Positions 2,982 through 49,254 of a DNA stretch of 64,000 bases are shown here, one piece after another; the first letter of the stretch is position 1; each line of letters starts with the position of its first letter. The notes under the pieces are model-generated. The model was given only the letters and a program-made list of their open reading frames with translations. It did not search any database and had not been told where the DNA came from. The DNA lies in sequence record JN673056; one strand, given 5' to 3'. This DNA is from Escherichia phage PhaxI. A program made the translations under genes and the position numbers.

Positions 2982-4097
2982 TTATGCATCCAATGTGTTC
3001 AGGCGTTGTTGGGCAGCATTATAGAATTGTTCTGCTAATTTGCAAACATTTTCAGGGCGCTGGATATTATTGGCGGCGCGGATATCTTTCTTCAAGACTT
3101 CCACCGCATCAGTAGCCACCATCTCTTCAGTGACTTCTACCTTCTCGGAAGCAACAGTAATCGTCCGATCGATGAAGTTGTAATCGATGCATTTACAGCG
3201 CTTCAATGCGTCACAGAACTTTTCATAATGCTTGGCATTGTCACGGTTCTGTACAATCACCTTAACGATTTGCCCTTCAATACCCAAAACATTGTTTAAC
3301 CAATCGGGGTCGATCCAATTACCTTCAGTATCAGAAGACATTTGGGTGTAGTCGTATTCCACGAACCGGAACAACGTTTGTTGTTCGTTGTTGGGGATAA
3401 ACAATTCCCCGCCATTCATGTCGTCTACATAGAATCCTCGGTTCGTCCCGTCTTTGTGGTCTTCCCAGGTAAGGTGATAAGGAGTCCCAATATACTGAAT
3501 GTTACCTTCCATCGAACGGGTATGGAAATGTCCGGTATCCACGCGCTCGAATTTCGAAAGGAGCGCCAAGTCGATCTGACCTTTATCACATACAGAGGAC
3601 TGGTACATTTTGAACCCTGCCAACTCCAGATGCGCAAAACAGTACTTGGCGTCTGTATCTTGTATCGCTTTAATGGACGCATCATAGTTCTCTTTGTTAA
3701 TCCACGGCAGTAGGAGGGTCTTGACACCTTCAATCATTACTTCAGTTGGTTCGCTGTAATAATGATAAACCTCCGGTGCCAATTCATTAAGATAAGAAGG
3801 CCAGTTAATACGATTGGACTCTTCTAACGTGATATCATGGTTGCCGACGATGCCATTCCATTTAATACCTGCTTTGCGCAGCGCTGGCGTCAATTCATCT
3901 TTCAACCAATCTTTATCGCGACCATACATGAATTTGCGAACATCAAACGTATCACCAAATTGCCACACTTCTTTAATATCGGCGTCAACCAATTCTGGAA
4001 TAAAATAATTGATGAGATAATTCTTTATGAATTCTCGAACGTAACGGGAACCATTACGGCTCCCGATATGTAAATCGCCAATTTTAGCAATCGCCAT
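2982..4097 (-). CDS. Mre11/SbcD-like nuclease (T4 gp47-like)
   Basis: Calcineurin-like phosphoesterase motifs GDLHIG, GNHD, DTGHFH; directly upstream of Rad50-like gene as in T4 47-46. Confidence 0.8.
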   Translation of the reverse strand: MAIAKIGDLHIGSRNGSRYVREFIKNYLINYFIPELVDADIKEVWQFGDTFDVRKFMYGRDKDWLKDELTPALRKAGIKWNGIVGNHDITLEESNRINWPSYLNELAPEVYHYYSEPTEVMIEGVKTLLLPWINKENYDASIKAIQDTDAKYCFAHLELAGFKMYQSSVCDKGQIDLALLSKFERVDTGHFHTRSMEGNIQYIGTPYHLTWEDHKDGTNRGFYVDDMNGGELFIPNNEQQTLFRFVEYDYTQMSSDTEGNWIDPDWLNNVLGIEGQIVKVIVQNRDNAKHYEKFCDALKRCKCIDYNFIDRTITVASEKVEVTEEMVATDAVEVLKKDIRAANNIQRPENVCKLAEQFYNAAQQRLNTLDA

Positions 4098-4875
4098 TAT
4101 TTTGTTGCTCCCGTTCTAATGCTCGTTTCTTTGCTTCTTCCCAATCTGGTTCCATAGAACATATTTCGTCTTCCAGATTGAATTGAGTAGAGCCGAAGTC
4201 ATAGTCTGAATTATCTTCGGCGTCGGCGGTAATGGTATTTTCACTCTTTGTGAGACATTGAAGTATACCGCGAGGAATTTTCTTATTCTTTTCCTCTTCT
4301 TTGATGGCGATTTGCTTTTGGCGTTCCTTTTCGCGCTGGGCTTCTTTCTTAGTTTCAAAATTTCCGATACGCTCACGAAAGTCCATTGTTATACCAGTGC
4401 TGTCTACGAATGTCTGTTGCTGGAAGTCTGGGTCATCTGATAATGCAGCGAAACCACCTGCTTCTTCAAATGAACGCAACTTGATATAATTGTGTTCTTC
4501 TTCACTGGTGAGTTTCTTGGCGAATGAACGATCGGCGCACATCGTTACCCAAGAGAAGAAATTGATTTTTCCTTTCTTGCCGATATGACTGACGTCAAAT
4601 GTATGGAGGTAACGAAGGATGTTGACAACGGCCTCACTGACCATGTCTTCGCGGTATGGATAATCACGATAGTTGTAGCGCATACTCATGTTCTTAATAA
4701 TCATCTGAACATTCATGGCCACATAATTGGGGATTCTTGGTAGGGGTGTTCCTTCGGCCAAAGCCTTTTTGCGAGCCGGAATCCAATCTCTCAATATTCC
4801 AACAACACGGTCATTATCTTCGTCTGTGAAATATTTGGTGACGTTATCACCCCTGTCTACAAAATTCATACCCAT
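4084..4875 (-). CDS. late-transcription sigma factor (T4 gp55-like), with acidic C-terminal extension
   Basis: Positionally equivalent to T4 gene 55 next to gp47; segments LRDW, MNVQMIIKNMSMRYNYRDY, NFFSWVTMCADRSFAKKL align by eye with remembered gp55 (IIDW, [39 protein letters not shown]); start moved from TTG 4890 to ATG 4875 preceded by GAGGAT. Confidence 0.55.
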   Translation of the reverse strand: MGMNFVDRGDNVTKYFTDEDNDRVVGILRDWIPARKKALAEGTPLPRIPNYVAMNVQMIIKNMSMRYNYRDYPYREDMVSEAVVNILRYLHTFDVSHIGKKGKINFFSWVTMCADRSFAKKLTSEEEHNYIKLRSFEEAGGFAALSDDPDFQQQTFVDSTGITMDFRERIGNFETKKEAQREKERQKQIAIKEEEKNKKIPRGILQCLTKSENTITADAEDNSDYDFGSTQFNLEDEICSMEPDWEEAKKRALEREQQNNGDC

Positions 4876-38664: not shown

Positions 38665-40347
38665 TTAAATACTATCGTCTGTTGAACCGGAGAATGGGAT
38701 AGTCTCAGGTTTAAACTTCAACGGACTAACATCTGAACCGCTATAATTGCCAGTTTCATCTGCTTGAACCTTCGGATAGAGACCTTTCTTCTTCTCTTCC
38801 GCGATCTTAGCCTGTTGTTCTTTAACTTCTTCGTCTGACATACGCAGAACATTCCGCATGACATAATCGATGGAGAATATAGAACCAACAAAAGGCTCAA
38901 CAGTGTTCAGAGAAGCCAGGCGATCATTTAATATGGCGTTTTCTTGTTGCTCACGAATATAGCTATCAGAAGTGAATTCAAACTTAATAAACGGCTTGAT
39001 TTTTTCATTCCAATCTTTTTCGTCAGTCACGCCTTTCAAAATTAATTGGCGACGTAAAAACTCCATAAAGAAATGGGAGTAACGACGACGTAACCCAGCA
39101 CAGAACTTGCTGAAACGCAGCTCTTCCTGTGTAATCTCCGCGAGGTTGGAACCCCCAATGTTAATAGATCCTTCCTCTTGGAGGCGGCTCTTAGGGATCA
39201 TTAGAGCATCATAGAGTTTTTCACGGAAATAGTTCACGTGATCCATTTCGCCCAATTGATTCCCACCCCCAACAGTCGCAATCTCTGTAGCATTCTGACC
39301 TTCGCGGCGCGGCAACCAATAATCCTCTGCAATACCCATAAGATGGGCATTACCTGTTATCTTACCAGTGGTGCGGTCATATGCGTTGCGGTTTTTGAAT
39401 TTACCCATCATCATGGTCATGTATTCTTCAGCAGATTTCTTACCGAGAGTACCGACGTCAAGATAGAATGCGCGTTTCTCAGGGGCGCGAGTGATGGCAT
39501 AAATTACTGTTGCGTCTTCAGTCGTAACCAAGTTGTTCAACGGGCGGATTGCAGGATTTAAAAGCCCTGGGACAATACCGTTAGCCAATGGTTCTTCACC
39601 ACTATCGATATAAACGATACTTTCGTCATCAAACACGAGTTCTTGTTGTGAAGGTTGGAAGTTTTGAGAAGTACCTGATTGACCAGTGAATTGGTTCCGA
39701 TTATAATTCGGATTGTAATAGTATTTCAGCGTTACAGATTCGATCGCTTCTATACCACCTTCACGCATTGCCTTTTCAACGATGTACACAGGACGAATAC
39801 AACGAGAATCCAGCATGACCAATTTCTTGATCCCGCCCTTCTTATTCGTTGGGTCAACAATCACATGATACGCTTGTCGACCATCTACATACCATTTCCG
39901 AATCTTTTGATACGCCGTATTTTCAAAATCCATCAAATGAATCACTTCTTTGAAACATTCGGTGATAGATTCTTTGACTGATTCAGAAATACCATCAACT
40001 TTGTCAAGATTGACTGTCACCGGAGTTTCGTCTTCCTCACATGTGACAACGTCATTAACAATGATGTCCACAGCTTTGCGGATTTCTGGCTGCTGGGCCA
40101 TGGACTGATATTCTTCCACAACTGTTTTAACGCTGAGAAGTTCACTCTCAACGCCAACATAGTTGTAGGTGTTTGCACCGCCCTGAAGGATTATAGAACC
40201 GTCTTGAGCATCGTCCAGAGCAACAACTGTCGCCTTGGTGAGCAACAATTCATCTTGTTTTTGGGCTAACTTATCGGTGTCGACTTTGGCATTGACTAAA
40301 CCGCCGCCACCAAACAAACCGAAGAACCCCATGCCGTATCCAGCCAT
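38665..40347 (-). CDS. portal vertex protein (T4 gp20-like)
   Basis: VIYAITRAPEKRAFYLDVG..KFKNRNAYDRTTGKITGNAHLMGIAEDYWLPRREGQNATE matches remembered T4 gp20 ([50 protein letters not shown]). Confidence 0.85.
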   Translation of the reverse strand: MAGYGMGFFGLFGGGGLVNAKVDTDKLAQKQDELLLTKATVVALDDAQDGSIILQGGANTYNYVGVESELLSVKTVVEEYQSMAQQPEIRKAVDIIVNDVVTCEEDETPVTVNLDKVDGISESVKESITECFKEVIHLMDFENTAYQKIRKWYVDGRQAYHVIVDPTNKKGGIKKLVMLDSRCIRPVYIVEKAMREGGIEAIESVTLKYYYNPNYNRNQFTGQSGTSQNFQPSQQELVFDDESIVYIDSGEEPLANGIVPGLLNPAIRPLNNLVTTEDATVIYAITRAPEKRAFYLDVGTLGKKSAEEYMTMMMGKFKNRNAYDRTTGKITGNAHLMGIAEDYWLPRREGQNATEIATVGGGNQLGEMDHVNYFREKLYDALMIPKSRLQEEGSINIGGSNLAEITQEELRFSKFCAGLRRRYSHFFMEFLRRQLILKGVTDEKDWNEKIKPFIKFEFTSDSYIREQQENAILNDRLASLNTVEPFVGSIFSIDYVMRNVLRMSDEEVKEQQAKIAEEKKKGLYPKVQADETGNYSGSDVSPLKFKPETIPFSGSTDDSI

Positions 40348-40414
40348 GATCTAAGTCCTCAACGTTTTCTTGTAATTAGTGAGGGGGAATAACATTCCCC
40401 CAGCACCGAGGACA

Positions 40415-40948
40415 TTACAAAGACTTGTCAGAAACGGCTTGGAAATAACGCAAGTCGACAGTGAACTGTGTGTAAGAGTCCATTGCCGACATATCGAGTT
40501 CCAGTTGGCCGAGGTTTTGAGGCCAGCCGCCCTGTAAAGTCCATGTCTTAGTCACGTTGTCATTCGCGTCCAGAAGTTCCATGATGATATCACGGAAATA
40601 ATCATCTGGATTCGCGCTGGCGCGGTTGTTTTCACTACCGTTGATGAATTGCTGCCACACTTCAAAAGCATTGTATGGAGCGTTGTTCACCACGTTAATG
40701 AACGTCACAGGAAGCGCTTCGAAACGACGATCCCCTGGGAACGGAAGTTCACGTCCACCCCAGGGCACCAGAATTTCGCCCAGCTGACCTGTTGGGGTGT
40801 TGGTGGTTACAGCCAGCAAGGACACGTCACGAATTGTGTCGGAACCAGCAACAAAAGAAGGAAAGTTTACAGTCACACGCCAGCGGTGTTGGCGTTGTAC
40901 GCCGCCCCCTCGTGACATGGCTGCGCGAAACTCATTGACTGTCGCCAT
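40415..40948 (-). CDS. tail tube protein (T4 gp19-like)
   Basis: Synteny between gp18 and gp20; C-terminal LQGGWPQNLGQLELD resembles T4 gp19 IKGLWPTNVGELQLDW. Confidence 0.65.
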   Translation of the reverse strand: MATVNEFRAAMSRGGGVQRQHRWRVTVNFPSFVAGSDTIRDVSLLAVTTNTPTGQLGEILVPWGGRELPFPGDRRFEALPVTFINVVNNAPYNAFEVWQQFINGSENNRASANPDDYFRDIIMELLDANDNVTKTWTLQGGWPQNLGQLELDMSAMDSYTQFTVDLRYFQAVSDKSL

Positions 40949-40978
40949 TTTTATATCTCCAAATAAGAGTACACAATT

Positions 40979-41437
40979 CTAATTAGTCGTCAATCTTTTA
41001 ATCTTCATGGAAGAAAAATCAAATCCGTGGTCAACATTGCTTAAAACGGGTTCTATTTCACACAATTCCCAACGGGGATCTATGAGAGAAACAAGACCAA
41101 TGTGTTCACCTGTGGATGTCAATTTTGCTGCAGTTTTACCCAGCATATGACTTCCATCATTACCGCCTTTATTCATGTTGTAACCCATCTCATAAGAATT
41201 ATATTGAGCGATGAGTTGCTTCTCTAATTCCCATTTATGGACTTCATCGGTCTGAGCAATTACAACGAAAGTAAATCCAGATGTTCCATACTTACGCATG
41301 GCATCATACAATTCACTTTGGACTCCATGATGAAAAGCATTCGCAAAATGCTGATCATATCTTCGTTGTGGGTTATTGGTTACACCGATGTAGACCTTTC
41401 CATTAGTTATCGTTTCAATTTTGTATGCGTATATCAT
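40979..41437 (-). CDS. GIY-YIG homing endonuclease
   Basis: MIYAYKIETITNGKVYIGVTNNPQRRYDQHF is a canonical GIY-YIG motif with the conserved Arg; inserted between gp19 and gp18. Confidence 0.7.
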   Translation of the reverse strand: MIYAYKIETITNGKVYIGVTNNPQRRYDQHFANAFHHGVQSELYDAMRKYGTSGFTFVVIAQTDEVHKWELEKQLIAQYNSYEMGYNMNKGGNDGSHMLGKTAAKLTSTGEHIGLVSLIDPRWELCEIEPVLSNVDHGFDFSSMKIKRLTTN

Positions 41438-41504
41438 TTCAAATTCACCTCTATTTTATTTAGTGTTGAACAATTTCGGGGTATTATGCTCTTGGAGGTG
41501 TTAT

Positions 41505-42293
41505 ATGATCGGTCATATCTACATGTTAACCGTCGGTAAAAAGAAGTATATCGGACAAACTAGAAACGGCGTTGAGTATCGAGTAAATGAACATTTGGGT
41601 GAAGCAAGAAGAGGGAATAAAACTATCCTCTACAACTATATCCGAAAGTATGGAATTACCAGCCAAGAAATATTGCTAGAATGCCATGTCGATGACCTAA
41701 ACTCTAACGAAATTGAACTCATAAAATTGCATAAGACTCATATCTCTGAAGGTGGGCTGAATATCAGCCGTGGCGGTCAGATAGACATATCTGGTATGGC
41801 CGCAGCATATGATATAGAAAGCAGGGAATTCATCGGAATGAAACCAGTTAATGATGCTGGTTGGAATGTTTTGTTTGTGGCAAAACAATACGGTTTAGTA
41901 CATAAAGAAGAAAGTAAAACAAAAATGTCCCAATCCCAAGCGGTCGTGTGGACAGAAGAAAAGAAAGAATTGCAATCCCGGCGAATTACAAAGGCATACG
42001 AGAATCCAAAATGTAAAGAAAATCTTCGTATCGCTATGAACAAAGTGCGTATGAATCCTGAATTTCAAGAGAAAATAAATCGATCTCTCGGGAGATGGTT
42101 TACACTTCTTTCACCAGCTGGTGAAGAATATGAAATCAAGAATCTAAACAAATTTTGTCAAGAACAATGTTTGTGTATAGAATCTTTCAACATGGCATTA
42201 GCTGGAAGGATGCAGAATCCCATCCCTAAACCTTACAGGAAATCTTCATTGAAGAGAACAAATACCACAGGATGGCATATCAGTAGGAAATAA
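41505..42293 (+). CDS. GIY-YIG homing endonuclease (Seg-like), plus-strand
   Basis: ATG 41505 with SD GGAGGTG; HIYMLTVGKKKYIGQTRNGVEYRVNEH canonical GIY-YIG; divergent from adjacent minus-strand GIY-YIG gene. Confidence 0.7.
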   Translation: MIGHIYMLTVGKKKYIGQTRNGVEYRVNEHLGEARRGNKTILYNYIRKYGITSQEILLECHVDDLNSNEIELIKLHKTHISEGGLNISRGGQIDISGMAAAYDIESREFIGMKPVNDAGWNVLFVAKQYGLVHKEESKTKMSQSQAVVWTEEKKELQSRRITKAYENPKCKENLRIAMNKVRMNPEFQEKINRSLGRWFTLLSPAGEEYEIKNLNKFCQEQCLCIESFNMALAGRMQNPIPKPYRKSSLKRTNTTGWHISRK

Positions 42294-42316
42294 AAACCCC
42301 GCCGAAGCGGGGTTGT
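42293..42316. terminator. bidirectional terminator (CCCCGC-CGAA-GCGGGG) shared by plus-strand HEG and minus-strand gp18
   Basis: A-run before and T-rich run after stem on both strands. Confidence 0.65.
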
Positions 42317-42320
42317 TGTC

Positions 42321-44216
42321 TTAGGATGCAGCAACGATGCCGCCGCCTGATTCGATCTCGGAGAATTCCATATCTGGTCGAACTGCAGCAAAATCCAAAT
42401 ATACCCAATTAATGCTGTACTCAGGCTTCAACCAAATGCCTGCAACCATGGTGTTGGCTGCGATAACATCAGCAGTGTTGTTATCTTCGTCACACTTGAC
42501 TTTACCATCGTAGATCGCACCCATATTTGCCAGTTGGCGAATATAAGGACGAACAGCGTTGCTGAACAGGCTGCGAGTGAACGCATCATTGTTCTCACCA
42601 AGGTAATATTTGGCGATTGCAGCGATGTTCTGTTCTGCCATAATGAACAAGCCACGAACATTGATACGATCGAAAGCAGACGGACGAGTCAGGCCAGTTT
42701 TGTCACCATACAACACGATACCTTCATTGGAGAAGGTTACGATGCTGTTAATCTGGTTGCGGTACAACACGGCACGTTCATCGGAAGACGCAGACCACGC
42801 CATTCGATTGTAGTTGTTGTATTTGCCACGGTTGTGGAACGCAGGAGATTTGTAGATACCCGCGATTTCAATGCTTCGCGCCCAAACACCTGCGGTGCCA
42901 CCACAAGCCGGAATCCAACGCATTTTGTCGTTGTACTTGTCGTACACATATGCCCAGTTATCATCCATGAAGAAATAAGAAGAGTCGCGAACAAGGCTTT
43001 CACGCCAAGCAACGACATCATCCATTTCACGACCACGGTTGCCAACAACCGTATCACGGAGCGGGGATACGAAAGATACCGTATCTTTTCGCTCAGTAGA
43101 TAAGTCGATCAATGCTTGTTGCTCAATCAGTTCTTCACAGTACGCAAATACTGGCTTCGCATCATATGCTTCAGCATTGTTCAAGACTTGGATAGCTGCC
43201 ACGCGGTTGATGTTATAATCGTCTACGCCGCCTTCTAATTCAACAACACCTGCGGACAGAGCGGTAGCGAAGGTGTACACCCAATTTGATGTATCATTGA
43301 TGACATCTTTGAAGTACGCATTCGCGCCATCGGACTTTTTGGAACCCTGTGTGTTCTGCATGAGTTCGTATTTTTCGATAATAGAACCAGATGCGCCAAC
43401 AGTGGTAATCACGGCGGTTGCAGTCAGCCCCTTATCATCTGGAACAATAGCAGTAACTGTCTGGGGACCAATAGCTTTATGGGTCACGATGACAGTGTTG
43501 GACTTCACGACAACAGAAGAATAAACACTTGTCAGGGAAGTTAGTGCTGTACCGATTTTGGTTGCCAAATCGGCTGGAGTATCAGTATCCAGATATGCGA
43601 TATCTTCACCTGCCACACTGATGGTGCCAGCAGCAGTAGCCGTACCAGAAACGGAGATACGGTCAACCTGACCGACCGCGCCAGCAGAGTCGGTAATGCG
43701 ACCAACTTTGTCTACGACAACTACATGGAATTCACCAGACTGAGGTGCGTATGCAAAGTTATTACGGAATTCCCAAGTTGAGAATCCAGCAGCATCACAA
43801 ACATTGATAGCAATATCATTACCCAGGGAACCTGGATAACGACCAGTCCAAGTGATGGACGCCGAAGGACTTGCTGTTTCAAAATCCAGTTTGTTTTTGA
43901 TCGCAATCGCTGTCTGACCTTTGGTAACAGAGTTCTTGGCCAGAGGACCAACAACACGGGTCACCCATGCCATAGAGCTGTAAGACAAAAAGTCCGCGAT
44001 TACGAGAAAATCGGTCGCAGTACTGTCGTTGGGTTTGAAGAATTTCTTCACCAAACCTGTCTCACCACCAGTCACCAGCACTGGAAGTTCAACTTCACCC
44101 CATTGAAATTTGCCGACGGTCGCGCCCTGAACAACAACGGACGGGGACGTCTGAAGCGTGGCATCACGCTCAGTCCACTGAACGGACGGCGCAACGCTGA
44201 AGCTTTGAGTTGCCAT
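42321..44216 (-). CDS. tail sheath protein (T4 gp18-like)
   Basis: N-terminus MATQSF..GKFQWGEVELP matches T4 gp18 GKFQWGPAFQ; start set to ATG 44214-44216 with SD AAGGAA (track starts at TTG 44249). Confidence 0.85.
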   Translation of the reverse strand: MATQSFSVAPSVQWTERDATLQTSPSVVVQGATVGKFQWGEVELPVLVTGGETGLVKKFFKPNDSTATDFLVIADFLSYSSMAWVTRVVGPLAKNSVTKGQTAIAIKNKLDFETASPSASITWTGRYPGSLGNDIAINVCDAAGFSTWEFRNNFAYAPQSGEFHVVVVDKVGRITDSAGAVGQVDRISVSGTATAAGTISVAGEDIAYLDTDTPADLATKIGTALTSLTSVYSSVVVKSNTVIVTHKAIGPQTVTAIVPDDKGLTATAVITTVGASGSIIEKYELMQNTQGSKKSDGANAYFKDVINDTSNWVYTFATALSAGVVELEGGVDDYNINRVAAIQVLNNAEAYDAKPVFAYCEELIEQQALIDLSTERKDTVSFVSPLRDTVVGNRGREMDDVVAWRESLVRDSSYFFMDDNWAYVYDKYNDKMRWIPACGGTAGVWARSIEIAGIYKSPAFHNRGKYNNYNRMAWSASSDERAVLYRNQINSIVTFSNEGIVLYGDKTGLTRPSAFDRINVRGLFIMAEQNIAAIAKYYLGENNDAFTRSLFSNAVRPYIRQLANMGAIYDGKVKCDEDNNTADVIAANTMVAGIWLKPEYSINWVYLDFAAVRPDMEFSEIESGGGIVAAS

Positions 44217-44258
44217 AATATCATTCCTTCTCGGTAGAGTTTCGCTCAATTTGAAAGA

Positions 44259-44268: not shown

Positions 44269-46479
44269 TCAATTCTTAAACCACTCATCCATGGTCATCC
44301 CTGACATTTCGTTGAAAACTTGAATACCCCCGAAACCAGGCAAATGCTCAGTTTCGGATGGGGTGTCTCCAACGACTAAACCGCCAAATGGGAATACCTG
44401 CTGGGATTCAGTTGAAGACATTCGGTTTCTCATGTCCTGAGAAATACTTGTAGATGTCAAGTCACTGAACCATTCTTGTTTTACCGCCCATGAATATAAG
44501 ACCAACGGCATGACACAGTCATCGTGACAACCGTCATCGGCTTCATACCGAGCGCCTTTGAACACAAATGTACTGAGTTCATCTATCGTGTCCTGGTCTT
44601 CTATCACCAACATTTCTTTCTCAATGAGCGCTTTCAGGTTAGCACAACCGATAGATCGGACTTTTCTGTTGGTATTGATACCAGGTTCCGGTTTACGTCC
44701 ACCAATCCGTTTCCCCGTCCCTTTGTTATCTGTTGATGTGAATATGATTTCTGGATATTCTATCTCTTGATAAAGAATTGTAATAACCTGACCGCCGACG
44801 TCGTTGTTTGTTTCAACAAGGACAGGACATTCCCCGTATTCGGTGCACATATCAGCTATCGTGTATGCATACATCATAGGAGGTATCGTATTATTCCTGT
44901 ACTTGGCTGCTATGACATGCGGATATTCAGTTATATCCAGAATTGTTAAGACGGAATAATCTCCTTCCACCCCCTTCCCAGTGTCCGCAATCCCAAAGTA
45001 GAGACGTTGTGGGTCGTATTCCTTATAAATCTTGGTGAATTCATTAGGTTCCCGATACAACTTGGACGTCATTTTATCTAAGCATTTGGCCGGAATCAAT
45101 GAACCCACGGAACCACGGAACTTAATGCCAAATTCTTGATCGAAACGAGCATCCCCCAGACGGGCACGTTGTTTGGTTTCCCAATCTGGATCTTTGGTAT
45201 ATGCCGGAACCTTATACCATGGGACTTCAGTTAGGTGGAAGTCGTTGTATGGTGGATGGCGTGGATCTGCTTTGGTGACAATATCATAGAACAACCCTCG
45301 CTGGCCTTTCGGAGTACTTGTCAAAATACAGCGTGATGTATCGGCAGATGCAATGGCTGGGAAAGTTGATTCCCAAAATTCAAAGTCGTTTTCGATAAAC
45401 GCGACTTCGTCAACATACAGGAGCGATCGACGACCACGGATGGAGTTCCGAAGACTCGTGGCATAAGCGTATATCTTAGAACCATTCTCAAACTCTATCA
45501 GGGTAGAACCAAACTTCTCACAACCCTGCTGAAGGAAGAATGGAAGGTCTTGGTATGCCTTTCTGATACGGTCAAGAATTTCTATCGCTTGTTTCTCTTT
45601 GTTTGCCAGTACTGCGATTTCCTTATCAGAATGGAACATCGCGTACCAAAGAAGAAACGCCGCCACCACGGTCGTGTTATGACTGAGAAAGCCATTCGTG
45701 TAATAACGTTGATCACTAGATTTGACCTGCAGATCGTACATATGGTGATATTCACCAGTCTGCCAAATCTCACGGATTTCTTCTGGACCTTCGGTCGTCA
45801 TGATGTATGACCCAGCATTCAGGTCTTTGGCAAATATCTCCTTCATGTCCGGAGTGAAGAACATATGTTCATCGGCCACGTTAATTCGCCTTCCGGTAAC
45901 GGTGACAATAACGAATTCCGCATATTTCTTCGTCTTATGCGCTGCGATAACCGGAACCCAGCCACTATCGGATTGTACAAAGTAACGTTTGCCGAAGCGG
46001 CTGTCCACGAACTTGTCATGGTTGCCAATGGTATTCAGCGGCACAGCGTGGTTGACGTCCTCGAAGCGGCTGTGAAGCTCCCCTATAGTCAGGAGCAACT
46101 CCTCTTGGCTGAGAGTATCGTAAACTGTGACAAGCGTGTCGCCTTTTACACATTTTCCGGACTGACGAGCCTGGACGACCGCATTAAATCGATAGTCCTG
46201 AAAGTCGTGGAACAACTGCTTCTGATAATCATGCATATCGAAAAGGATAAAGCCCTTATCGATCGTGGTTATCTTGTAATAGTTGGCGGCGAAGTAGTGT
46301 GCATCCATAGAACATTCAACGAATTCGTCTTCTTGTTCATCTGTCAGCATTAACTCGACTCGAGGAGCACGCACAGAAAGTTTGCGCATGAACGTTTGGT
46401 CCATACGCAATTTTACATCGTCTATTTTGAACCCCGTTTTAATTGGGGCATATTCTATATCACGCTTCTGATACGCCAT
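44269..46479 (-). CDS. terminase large subunit (T4 gp17-like) interrupted by a mini-intein
   Basis: C-terminal nuclease/ATPase blocks (LLYVDEVAFIENDFEFW, ILTSTPKGQRGLFYDI) match remembered T4 gp17; Walker A ARQSGK is separated from its TTVVAAFL continuation by a 159-aa insert. Confidence 0.9.
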   Translation of the reverse strand: MAYQKRDIEYAPIKTGFKIDDVKLRMDQTFMRKLSVRAPRVELMLTDEQEDEFVECSMDAHYFAANYYKITTIDKGFILFDMHDYQKQLFHDFQDYRFNAVVQARQSGKCVKGDTLVTVYDTLSQEELLLTIGELHSRFEDVNHAVPLNTIGNHDKFVDSRFGKRYFVQSDSGWVPVIAAHKTKKYAEFVIVTVTGRRINVADEHMFFTPDMKEIFAKDLNAGSYIMTTEGPEEIREIWQTGEYHHMYDLQVKSSDQRYYTNGFLSHNTTVVAAFLLWYAMFHSDKEIAVLANKEKQAIEILDRIRKAYQDLPFFLQQGCEKFGSTLIEFENGSKIYAYATSLRNSIRGRRSLLYVDEVAFIENDFEFWESTFPAIASADTSRCILTSTPKGQRGLFYDIVTKADPRHPPYNDFHLTEVPWYKVPAYTKDPDWETKQRARLGDARFDQEFGIKFRGSVGSLIPAKCLDKMTSKLYREPNEFTKIYKEYDPQRLYFGIADTGKGVEGDYSVLTILDITEYPHVIAAKYRNNTIPPMMYAYTIADMCTEYGECPVLVETNNDVGGQVITILYQEIEYPEIIFTSTDNKGTGKRIGGRKPEPGINTNRKVRSIGCANLKALIEKEMLVIEDQDTIDELSTFVFKGARYEADDGCHDDCVMPLVLYSWAVKQEWFSDLTSTSISQDMRNRMSSTESQQVFPFGGLVVGDTPSETEHLPGFGGIQVFNEMSGMTMDEWFKN
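45676..46152 (-). mobile_element. mini-intein (Hint domain only, 159 aa) inserted in the terminase Walker A P-loop
   Basis: Insert begins Cys (CVKGDTLV, block A), contains VYDLQV...NGFLSHN ending in His-Asn, and is followed by Thr (+1 nucleophile) that completes QSGK-T of the P-loop; no homing endonuclease domain. Confidence 0.75.
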
Positions 46480-48543: not shown

Positions 48544-49254
48544 ATGATCGTCCTGACAGAAGGAATTGCTTCTAAAAGAATCAAATCATATGCTTCTTCT
48601 AGAGGTGGAATATTTCACGGATTTGTCGGTGGTAAATTTGTCACCAACCAAACTAAGTGCATTTTGTCTTGCGAATTTGGTCATGAATGGAACTCAGCAA
48701 CTTATGCGAATTTGATAAATAAAGGAAGTTGGTGTCCTTCGTGTCGTGGAAACAAGAAGATCTCAAATGAAGAAGCTAAAATCAGGATATCGGAGTACGC
48801 CGTAAGCAACGGTGGTAAATTCATAAATTTCATTGGCGGGAAGTACAAAGACAACGTGACAATTTGTGTCATGGAATGTTCTGAAACGCACAGGTGGGAA
48901 TCCAGGTACGGTAATTTAGTCAACAGCCGAAGTTGGTGTCCGTATTGCGCAGAATCGGGTTACAATTATTCTAAGGAAGGTTTCTTATATATTCTAGTCA
49001 ACGACGAAGGTTGTATGAAAGTGGGAATAACCAACTCGCCTAAGAAACGTATAAATTGTTTGAGAAGCACCACCCCGTTTTACTTCAACGTTCTAGAAAT
49101 ATTTAATTCAACTGACGGATTATTTGTTTCCAGGTTGGAAAGAATTGCCCATAGAATGTGTAAGAGCGCGGGGTATAAGGATTTTGACGGTGCTACCGAA
49201 TGGTTTGTATACGATGGATCAGTCGTAGATTTTATCAGAAATATTTTGAAGTAG
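48544..49254 (+). CDS. T5orf172/GIY-YIG-superfamily nuclease domain protein with two N-terminal zinc-ribbon repeats, plus-strand
   Basis: C-terminal GFLYILVNDEGCMKVGITNSPKKR...EWF fits the T5orf172 pattern; N-terminus has two about 70-aa repeats each with C..C..H.W...SWCP.C; SD AAGGTG. Confidence 0.55.
   Translation: MIVLTEGIASKRIKSYASSRGGIFHGFVGGKFVTNQTKCILSCEFGHEWNSATYANLINKGSWCPSCRGNKKISNEEAKIRISEYAVSNGGKFINFIGGKYKDNVTICVMECSETHRWESRYGNLVNSRSWCPYCAESGYNYSKEGFLYILVNDEGCMKVGITNSPKKRINCLRSTTPFYFNVLEIFNSTDGLFVSRLERIAHRMCKSAGYKDFDGATEWFVYDGSVVDFIRNILK

Follow-up and report, generated by a model that had tools for sequence, protein, structure and literature searches.

Divergent GIY-YIG homing endonuclease genes at the tail tube-tail sheath junction of a Kuttervirus: a probable landing site for free-standing homing genes

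Free-standing homing endonucleases encoded beside essential phage genes are textbook material, and SegF and SegG of phage T4 belong to the Seg type of free-standing GIY-YIG homing endonucleases. Genes of the T4 Seg type stand between conserved genes, encode a GIY-YIG domain joined to a DNA-binding region at the C terminus, are patchily distributed, and have been linked to co-conversion and to localised exclusion of markers. SegB is cited as a T4 free-standing GIY-YIG homing endonuclease (PMC8472413). A modular plan in which a flexible linker ties an N-terminal catalytic domain to a C-terminal DNA-binding domain is seen in I-TevI of the T4 td gene, which is intron-encoded, and in I-HmuI of phage SPO1. 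T4 endonuclease II (EndoII, DenA) is a small GIY-YIG enzyme of 136 amino acids that consists of the catalytic domain alone; it is the product of an early gene and acts on host DNA.

Closer to the locus described here are three Ackermannviridae reports. Salmonella phage Det7 carries the same feature as gp5 and gp6 (DET7_5, DET7_6), both annotated as GIY-YIG homing endonucleases. CBA120 orf195, which is 99.3% identical to the shorter of the two proteins treated below, was described in the CBA120 genome paper as a homologue of T4 segD (PMC3184105). In Dickeya phage LIMEstone1, F-LimVIII lies at the same gp19-gp18 junction and is encoded on the strand that does not carry the tail genes (PMC3296691); it is twice as long and belongs to an unrelated nuclease family, Hef-like rather than GIY-YIG. 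No paper was found in the literature that compares phages at this junction as a hot spot, or that reports biochemistry on the two proteins.

The window analysed, 64,000 nucleotides of Escherichia phage PhaxI (JN673056), is a Kuttervirus (Ackermannviridae) genome whose junction region is 99% identical to that of Det7. The left flank of the junction is the T4 gp19-like tail tube gene (40415-40948, minus strand), assigned by phrog_45 (6e-57) and by the Det7 annotation of its orthologue as tail tube; the Pfam Phage_T4_gp19 match (1.8e-5) is under the gathering score. The right flank is the T4 gp18-like tail sheath gene (minus strand; phrog_23, 3e-113, and Pfam sheath domains), for which the mechanical reading frame covers 42321-44249 and the true start is the ATG at 44216, giving a protein of 631 residues (42321-44216) as in all relatives. 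Between them a minus-strand gene of 152 codons with an ATG start (HEG1, 40979-41437) and a plus-strand gene of 262 codons (HEG2, 41505-42293) were found where the sequence-only reading had placed a divergent GIY-YIG pair, with start codons at 41437 and 41505; the separation, put at about 70 bp, measures 67 bp. The listed open reading frame of HEG2 opens at a TTG (41421), but the real start is the ATG at 41505, which follows the ribosome-binding site GGAGGTG (41494-41500, plus strand) and agrees with Det7 gene 5, to whose product HEG2 is 100% identical. HEG2 is the sole large real open reading frame off the minus strand from about 31.1 kb to 48.5 kb, so that the claimed interruption of a minus-strand operon stands. 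Both genes are intergenic, sited in the gp19-gp18 spacer and not within an intron or intein. They are already annotated as GIY-YIG homing endonucleases in Det7 and in dozens of relatives, and the locus is nothing out of the ordinary among the selfish homing genes of phages.

The two proteins, which had been called unrelated, proved to share 28% identity over 113 residues (E = 3e-9) and, by this alignment, are distant paralogues within one family. HEG1, a GIY-YIG nuclease domain plus linker, matches Pfam GIY-YIG on its own (1.9e-11; 44.5 bits against a gathering score of 22.6) and phrog_5123 (2e-93). HEG2 alone reaches 17.2 bits in Pfam, under the same threshold, and matches phrog_314 (4.7e-29). 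A profile of seven family members including HEG2 matches the I-TevI catalytic domain (1MK0) at 4e-8; PF01541 is matched by all seven members, PF19835 (SegE_GIY-YIG) weakly by four and NUMOD3 by one. Both proteins fall under the cut-off of TIGR01453, the group I intron endonuclease family (49 and 31 bits against 56), and NCBIfam yielded nothing further for either. Sequence searches of the PDB gave zero matches with HEG2 alone and only marginal I-TevI matches (0.08) with HEG1 alone. Tyr6, Tyr15, Arg26, His30, Glu69 and Asn86 (HEG2 numbering) are invariant in HEG1 and HEG2 and in the related occupants HEG3 and HEG4 described below, and align with I-TevI Y6, Y17, R27, H31, E75 and N90.

For HEG2, structure prediction adds the fold. 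The prediction places a nuclease domain at residues 1-89 and, beyond a flexible linker, NUMOD3-like helices at 135-195 and a DNA-binding domain at the C terminus (199-262). In the AlphaFold model residues 1-89 have a pLDDT of about 90 and residues 199-262 one of 84-94, with the linker poorly modelled. The model superposes on I-TevI 1LN0 (TM 0.77, rmsd 2.1 A, probability 1.00), and its C-terminal region matches the I-HmuI chain of 1U3E (probability 1.00); Foldseek E-values are only 0.03 since each match spans one domain only. Profile matches and catalytic residues thus assign both proteins as GIY-YIG nucleases, as the sequence-only reading had proposed, and the predicted fold does so for HEG2. 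HEG2 is of the T4 Seg type in its free-standing position, architecture and patchy distribution, although similarity between the T4 Seg and Ackermannviridae proteins is restricted to the nuclease domain and HEG1 is without a DNA-binding module. The modular plan of I-TevI and I-HmuI likewise recurs in the predicted domains of HEG2; in contrast to I-TevI, HEG2 lies outside any intron and its linker is without an evident zinc finger.

HEG2 is sparsely distributed. It occurs in 17 of 234 matching records, and most Kuttervirus genomes are without it; a search of a large protein database returned only 10 relatives, all Ackermannviridae-like, and an IMG/VR scan found one close locus, in the EP75 genome, the others being remote and confined to the nuclease domain. 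Its divergence also departs from that of its neighbours. Compared with phage bering of the same genus, HEG2 is 87.6% identical whereas the tube gene and HEG1 are 99% identical, and dS is 0.49 for HEG2 against 0.03-0.04 for HEG1 and the tube gene. Compared with Klebsiella phage cp18, a Taipeivirus, identity is 87.5% for HEG2 and 96.9% for the spacer upstream of it, but only 79-83% for the flanks. From these comparisons HEG2 appears to behave as a mobile cassette, patchy and with a divergence decoupled from its flanks even across genera.

A trace of such movement may be present in the adjoining sheath gene. Synonymous diversity was scanned in 90-nt windows over the portal, tube, sheath and terminase 3' end in eight genomes, and the top 5 of 158 windows all lie in the final 210 nt of the sheath gene (42321-42530, minus strand), next to the junction. 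Diversity there is 0.11-0.18 against a median of 0.06, with the sheath protein almost invariant, and the 5' end of the tube gene shows no variation among the eight Kuttervirus genomes. The peak is partly ascertained, because the eight genomes were picked for their differing junctions, and mosaic recombination is widespread in other parts of these genomes (the window and Det7 portal segments, for example, are 86-88% identical). We infer that this 210-nt stretch may be a co-conversion or target region.

Across five genera the gp19-gp18 junction was found in at least seven states of occupancy, the occupants being none, four GIY-YIG variants in either orientation, or a Hef-like gene. It is empty, with a spacer of 80-150 bp, in the Agtrevirus phages Ag3 and EspM4VN; it holds HEG1 only in kage, Chennai, May and 2050H1, HEG1 with HEG2 in 17 records, HEG1 with HEG3 in rabagast, a HEG2-like gene only in SilasIsHot and in Agtrevirus SW16-7, and HEG4 only in allotria, CAU_YEP3 and pertopsoe. 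In RC-2014 a Hef-like gene of 596 codons, the equivalent of F-LimVIII, is accompanied by a HEG4 remnant. Presence and absence thus vary among relatives, which is not the picture of conserved core genes with a non-nuclease function. The suggestion that endonucleases have recurrently targeted this structural junction is supported by these differences among relatives, together with the decoupling of HEG2 from its flanks. The reading we consider probable is that free-standing homing endonuclease genes have long used the spacer as a landing site, and that two generations of occupant are present here.

Part of the diversity of occupants could nevertheless have arisen as one old insertion diverged in place, without repeated invasion, because all of the GIY-YIG occupants come from one family. 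A rival proposal is that of a single ancient colonisation in an Ackermannviridae ancestor, followed by duplication, inversion, deletion and ordinary recombination during co-infection, with no homing today and no recurrent targeting. The common family and architecture of the GIY-YIG occupants, the 5' and 3' end sequences that they share at the DNA level, the arrangement in rabagast, which resembles a tandem pair with HEG3 fused directly upstream of HEG1, and the pervasive mosaic recombination of these genomes are all in keeping with such a history. It is nonetheless improbable in view of the empty sites of Agtrevirus, a genus in which SW16-7 yet has a HEG2-like gene, and of the unrelated Hef-like gene that occupies the same spot in Limestonevirus beside a HEG4 remnant (PMC3296691). 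Against it also stand a Taipeivirus HEG2 as near to the copy in the window as is that of a phage of the same genus, a peak of synonymous diversity exactly at the junction-proximal end of the sheath gene, and the retention of catalytic residues and low dN/dS in every lineage.

The sequences around the two genes are informative as to what may have moved and what was there before. The divergent intergenic region (41438-41504, 67 bp) accompanies HEG2, being 97% identical in bering and cp18 and absent in HEG1-only genomes. On the minus strand it holds the HEG1 ribosome-binding site GAGGTG (41446-41451) and, upstream of HEG1, the motif CTAAATA (41457-41463). Of the 10 minus-strand copies of CTAAATA in the window, 9 precede a late-gene ATG by 17-45 nt, and we infer a late-promoter-like motif that may be used as a promoter. 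In number CTAAATA is not enriched in the window (11 copies against 7.3 expected), and it is striking only in its strand and in its placement relative to start codons. A sigma-70-type promoter scan of the 67-bp spacer returned none that passed. The element TTTAGT-17-TATTAT, whose position is conserved in the HEG2-like and Hef-like cassettes, was considered as a weak promoter and is not claimed as one.

Just upstream of the tube gene, a conserved 17-nt motif, TACACAATTCTAATTAG (40970-40986), forms the left boundary of all minus-strand inserts, and the stop codon of HEG1 is the TAG within CTAATTAG. The motif adjoins the tube gene in the empty site of Ag3 and in genomes bearing HEG1 or HEG4, and EspM4VN has an equivalent, CTAAATAG, in the corresponding position. 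The motif may represent a variant form of the late promoter of the tube gene. The window contains a single copy, by which a role as a general regulatory motif was ruled out.

At the other border, in the 27-bp gap between the HEG2 and sheath stop codons, lies a GC-rich hairpin, AACCCCGCCGAAGCGGGGTT (42295-42314), with a stem of 8 bp of which six are GC. Its folding energy lies between -15 and -16 kcal/mol, with z at -3.4 for the minus and -2.4 for the plus strand. The terminator scan lists it on both strands: the minus-strand tail, TTTTTATTT, is canonical, and the plus-strand tail, GTTGTCTT, is interrupted yet above the scan threshold. A homologous hairpin is found in the empty sites too. The hairpin may serve gp18 and the plus-strand gene as a shared bidirectional terminator, as the sequence-only reading had it, with a T-tract that is good on the minus strand and broken up on the plus strand. 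By these features it appears to be the ancestral intrinsic terminator of the sheath gene, positioned so that it would stop HEG2 transcription too.

HEG1 has a different history. Aligned with HEG3 and HEG4 at the DNA level, it lacks about 200 nt internally and has the 3' end in common with them; on this alignment it is a paralogue from which an internal deletion has removed the C-terminal DNA-binding module. At 60% identity or more it is present in about 198 phage records, and it is near fixation in Kuttervirus, Taipeivirus and Miltonvirus. Its dN/dS against Klebsiella phage May is about 0.08 (0.05-0.09 for the tail alone, 0.05-0.10 for domain plus tail), a value low enough that a pseudogene was rejected, and the catalytic residues are kept in May and 2050H1. 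The dS against May is 1.38, about equal to the 1.44-1.50 of the flanks, so that in this comparison the history of HEG1 is not decoupled from theirs and gives no sign of current mobility. HEG1 is thus inherited vertically under purifying selection, and on the same comparison does not look like an actively homing gene today. This pattern suggests a protein that is still either useful or self-preserving.

The useful protein would be a domesticated one: a small GIY-YIG nuclease, no longer selfish, that benefits the phage. It might be a low-specificity oligomeric nuclease like T4 endonuclease II, acting on unmodified host or competitor DNA, or it might police the junction, in trans either cooperating with incoming full-length endonucleases or countering them. 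The retention of all catalytic residues despite the absent DNA-binding module, strong purifying selection over both domain and tail, co-divergence with the flanks and near fixation in three genera agree with such a role, as do the precedent of EndoII, close to HEG1 in length (a likeness of size), and the hypermodified thymidines carried by Ackermannviridae DNA (PMC8472413). However, EndoII is encoded by an early gene, whereas HEG1 lies in the late tail operon directly after a terminator, an odd place for a nuclease of host DNA, and CTAAATA is missing upstream of it in HEG1-only genomes. The gene is dispensable, being missing from the Kuttervirus phages SilasIsHot, allotria and pertopsoe, from all Agtrevirus examined and from Limestonevirus. 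In PADLOC, HEG1 matches only generic homing-endonuclease models and HEG2 none, and therefore no sign of a defence-system role was obtained. Purifying selection, moreover, is likewise expected of a homing gene that is occasionally active, and we regard domestication as rather unlikely.

That both genes are instead inactive relics, decaying and awaiting loss, is highly improbable. A domain is clearly gone from HEG1, the degraded HEG4 remnant of RC-2014 shows that decay does occur at this junction, and HEG2, with a dN/dS of 0.21, evolves more rapidly than the structural genes, at 0.03. On the other side, neither open reading frame is broken in any record examined, the six catalytic positions do not vary, dN/dS of both genes is far under 1, and both have strong ribosome-binding sites.

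The long-standing landing site that we favour may be pictured as follows. In an empty Ackermannviridae spacer, about 80 bp long, the sheath terminator hairpin would be followed by the tube promoter and ribosome-binding region, and both present occupants would derive from one Seg-like, I-TevI-like GIY-YIG family. HEG1 would be the older occupant, which has lost about 200 nt for the DNA-binding module and kept its catalytic centre and linker; HEG2 would be a later arrival that is still mobile. In a mixed infection with a relative lacking HEG2, the HEG2 protein would bind and cut near the junction, probably towards the 3' end within the sheath gene, where carriers of HEG2 differ at silent sites. 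Recombinational repair, with the carrier genome as template, would next copy the cassette and some of the sheath flank, the outcome being intronless homing with marker co-conversion. The cassette would include the 67 bp upstream of HEG2, whose minus-strand CTAAATA and ribosome-binding site now stand ahead of HEG1, and would end at the sheath terminator, so that late tail-gene expression would be undisturbed. Cleavage, the location of the target, promoter use, the direction of transfer and preferential inheritance are each put forward here as proposed steps, read from sequence comparison.

The genes themselves, being already annotated, are of little import. The comparative picture has modest value, in that one 80-bp spacer holds, in different phages, genes of a single GIY-YIG family in either orientation, an unrelated Hef-like gene, and a domain-deleted paralogue conserved under selection, and is bordered by a sharp peak of silent-site diversity in the sheath gene. 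Kuttervirus phages are in wide use in the biocontrol of Salmonella and E. coli. If HEG1 is domesticated, the junction would be an arena of competition between endonucleases that moulds silent-site diversity in the sheath gene. More generally, the junction offers a compact natural system for intronless homing, for the cycle in which a site is invaded, its occupant degenerates and invasion recurs, and for endonuclease-driven mosaicism.

The window is from a Kuttervirus (Ackermannviridae) genome, and its 40300-42700 stretch aligns at 99.0% identity over the full length with Salmonella phage Det7 and four further records. Portal (38665-40347), tail tube gp19 (40415-40948), tail sheath gp18 (42321-44216) and large terminase (44269-46479) are encoded on the minus strand, as is HEG1, a 152-residue GIY-YIG gene product, at 40979-41437 between tube and sheath. 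HEG2, the 262-residue plus-strand member of the pair, begins at ATG 41505, the start used in Det7; GGAGGTG ends four bases before this codon, and the mechanical ORF opens at TTG 41421. The HEG1 and HEG2 start codons have 67 bp between them, and HEG2 is the only plus-strand gene from about 31 kb to 48.5 kb, shadow ORFs aside. Gene order, start spacing and the lone plus-strand gene thus confirm the coordinates, strands and description of the sequence-only reading. For the sheath gene the mechanical ORF opens at TTG 44249 (642 residues), but since the protein has 631 residues in all relatives, translation truly begins at ATG 44216, 43 nt downstream of a CTAAATA motif.

Profile searches upheld the GIY-YIG assignment of both genes. 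HEG1 exceeded the gathering score of Pfam GIY-YIG (1.9e-11) and had a 2e-93 match to phrog_5123 ("homing endonuclease with GIY-YIG motif"); HEG2 alone reached 17.2 bits against Pfam GIY-YIG, under the 22.6 cut-off, and matched phrog_314 ("homing endonuclease") at 4.7e-29. The endonucleases that relatives carry at this locus were aligned into a family profile, which found the catalytic domain of I-TevI (1MK0) at 4e-8 (positions 1-93), and Y6, Y15, R26, H30, E69 and N86 (HEG2 numbering) are invariant in the family and align with I-TevI catalytic residues. In an AlphaFold model of HEG2, built on 12 aligned sequences (mean pLDDT 71), confidence is high for the nuclease domain (residues 1-89, pLDDT ~90) and the C-terminal domain (199-262, pLDDT 84-94); the linker is ill-resolved and leads into helices at 135-195. 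The model's top Foldseek match was I-TevI 1LN0 (TM 0.77, rmsd 2.1 A, prob 1.00), the I-HmuI-DNA complex 1U3E coming next (prob 1.00), and one family member matched the NUMOD3 motif.

The two genes had been thought unrelated, which proved wrong: 28% of 113 aligned residues are identical (E = 3e-9). HEG1 is nearer to minus-strand endonucleases of other phages (42% identity to HEG4 of allotria). When aligned as DNA with HEG3 and HEG4, full-length minus-strand relatives found at the same junction in other phages, HEG1 is homologous from the 5' UTR to about codon 137, after which ~200 nt encoding the C-terminal DNA-binding domain are absent, and homology is regained in the last few codons and downstream (CTAATTAGAATTGTGTAAC). 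HEG1 is thus a deletion derivative that retains the catalytic domain and linker without the DNA-binding module.

The tube-sheath junction is occupied in various ways among the 16 loci fetched, in agreement with the proposed recurrent endonuclease occupation. It is empty in Agtrevirus Ag3 (78-bp spacer) and EspM4VN, and holds HEG1 only in most Kuttervirus (kage, Chennai, Vi01, CBA120), Taipeivirus May and Miltonvirus 2050H1; the CBA120 gene, orf195, was termed a segD homologue (PMC3184105). HEG1 and HEG2 occur together in 17 records, among them Det7, bering and Klebsiella phage cp18, HEG1 with HEG3 fused upstream in rabagast, ECML-4 and S115, a plus-strand HEG2-like gene only in Kuttervirus SilasIsHot (59% identity) and Agtrevirus SW16-7 (64%), and HEG4 only in allotria, pertopsoe and Yersinia phage CAU_YEP3. 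Dickeya phage Coodle appears, by tblastn position, to have a HEG4-like gene beside the tube gene. In rabagast, full-length HEG3 (4135-4872 of the fetched locus) and the beginning of the shortened HEG1 (3680-4138) have 4 nt in common (ATGA), forming a same-strand tandem paralogue pair; the hairpin there has the GCCCTCC allele found alongside HEG3/HEG4, and HEG1-only genomes have the CCCCGCC allele. For LIMEstone1, a Hef-like endonuclease, F-LimVIII, was reported from this junction, encoded on the other strand (PMC3296691). In Dickeya phage RC-2014 (4607-6713 of the fetched locus), ~150 nt of degraded HEG4 3' end are followed by an "old" GCCCTCC hairpin, a TATTTAG module, a plus-strand 596-residue Hef-like gene and a second, CCCCGCC hairpin ahead of the sheath stop, a layered record of successive invasions. 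The sheath-proximal hairpin is kept in every state, as is the tube-proximal motif CTAATTAG, save where it gave way to a HEG2-like cassette; the inserts are therefore bounded on one side by the sheath terminator and on the other by the expression signals of the tube gene.

Segment identities to the window distinguish the histories of the pair. Bering, of the same genus, has 99.1% in tube and in HEG1, 96.9% in the 67-bp spacer, 87.6% in HEG2 and 92-94% in sheath, whereas the Klebsiella Taipeivirus cp18 has 82.8% in tube, 78.9% in HEG1, 96.9% in the spacer, 87.5% in HEG2 and 81-84% in sheath (portal, 77.5%). Since these values depart from the flanks, HEG2 and its upstream spacer have had a separate history and have entered this one site in more than one genus. 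Codon analysis against bering agrees, with HEG2 dS at 0.49 (dN/dS 0.21) and 0.03-0.04 for HEG1 and tube. HEG1 against May gave dS of 1.38, equal to tube (1.50) and sheath (1.44), and dN/dS of 0.08 (C-terminal tail alone, 0.05-0.09), by which a pseudogene was rejected; it has no sign of current mobility. With ~198 phage records carrying HEG1 at >=60% protein identity, these values show it to be a vertically inherited gene under selection, and HEG2 is the mobile one of the pair.

Diversity was scanned in eight Kuttervirus genomes, picked for differing junctions, over 158 overlapping 90-nt windows of portal, tube, sheath and terminase 3' end. The top five cover exactly the final 210 nt of the sheath gene (0.11-0.18; median 0.06, 95th percentile 0.094), where the final 31 residues are almost invariant, and this end is therefore the likely target region, with the caveats that the choice of genomes may favour the junction and that mosaicism (86-88% identity) is also present in the portal gene. 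Such diversity would be expected from co-conversion of diverged flanks or from selected silent cleavage-resistant variants. The sheath genes of the window and rabagast are identical except close to the junction, and no diversity at all is seen at the tube 5' end, separated by HEG1 from HEG2, HEG3 and HEG4. Identity to Det7 is 100% at the junction but falls to 86-94% in parts of the portal gene (38949-40148), so these two phages, nearly identical elsewhere, are recombination mosaics.

The GC-rich hairpin at 42295-42314, proposed as a bidirectional terminator shared with gp18, is stable on both strands and abuts HEG2, but its T-tract, canonical on the minus strand, is interrupted on the plus strand. 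As empty sites also have it, it is taken as the sheath terminator rather than one brought by HEG2; the two hairpins of different allele in RC-2014 show that plus-strand cassettes can carry a copy. The window has 11 copies of CTAAATA, 10 on the minus strand, of which nine (28671, 37433, 38651, 41457, 44259, 48510, 49281, 55796 and 61019) precede the RBS and ATG of a late or structural gene by 17-45 nt. The motif is a candidate for the core of the Kuttervirus late promoter, as TATAAATA is in T4; according to the 2011 CBA120 paper (PMC3184105), ViI-like phages had no late promoter identified at that time. The copy at 41457-41463 precedes HEG1 and is part of the spacer that moves together with HEG2; HEG1-only genomes such as kage lack this copy, and we infer that the cassette provides its downstream gene with a late-promoter-like element. 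A sigma-70 promoter scan identified none for HEG2.

Two further elements were observed. TerL (736 residues; 44269-46479) contains a 159-residue mini-intein candidate (residues 110-268; 45676-46152, minus strand) in the Walker A P-loop (...ARQSGK/CVKGDTL...FLSHN/TTVVAAF), with a Pfam Intein_splicing match (6.9e-7) that falls short of the gathering score. Nearly all fetched Ackermannviridae loci list a terminase gene of 2211 bp (2208 bp in two), so the insert seems to be fixed in the family; a literature search, judged by titles, gave no paper on TerL inteins of the family. A second opposite-strand gene among minus-strand structural genes (48544-49254, plus strand, 236 residues) matched phrog_681 ("endonuclease", 1e-58) and phrog_559 ("HNH endonuclease", 2.5e-11), and is probably a further free-standing homing endonuclease.

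In summary, the sequence-only reading correctly recognized a GIY-YIG endonuclease gene pair at a junction that is occupied again and again. Public records already annotate both genes, and such elements are familiar in general (PMC10448857, PMC3296691). What is new is that HEG1 and HEG2 are related, that HEG1 is a domain-deleted, selected and vertically inherited paralogue and HEG2 the mobile member, and that the sheath 3' end beside the junction is a silent-site hot spot.
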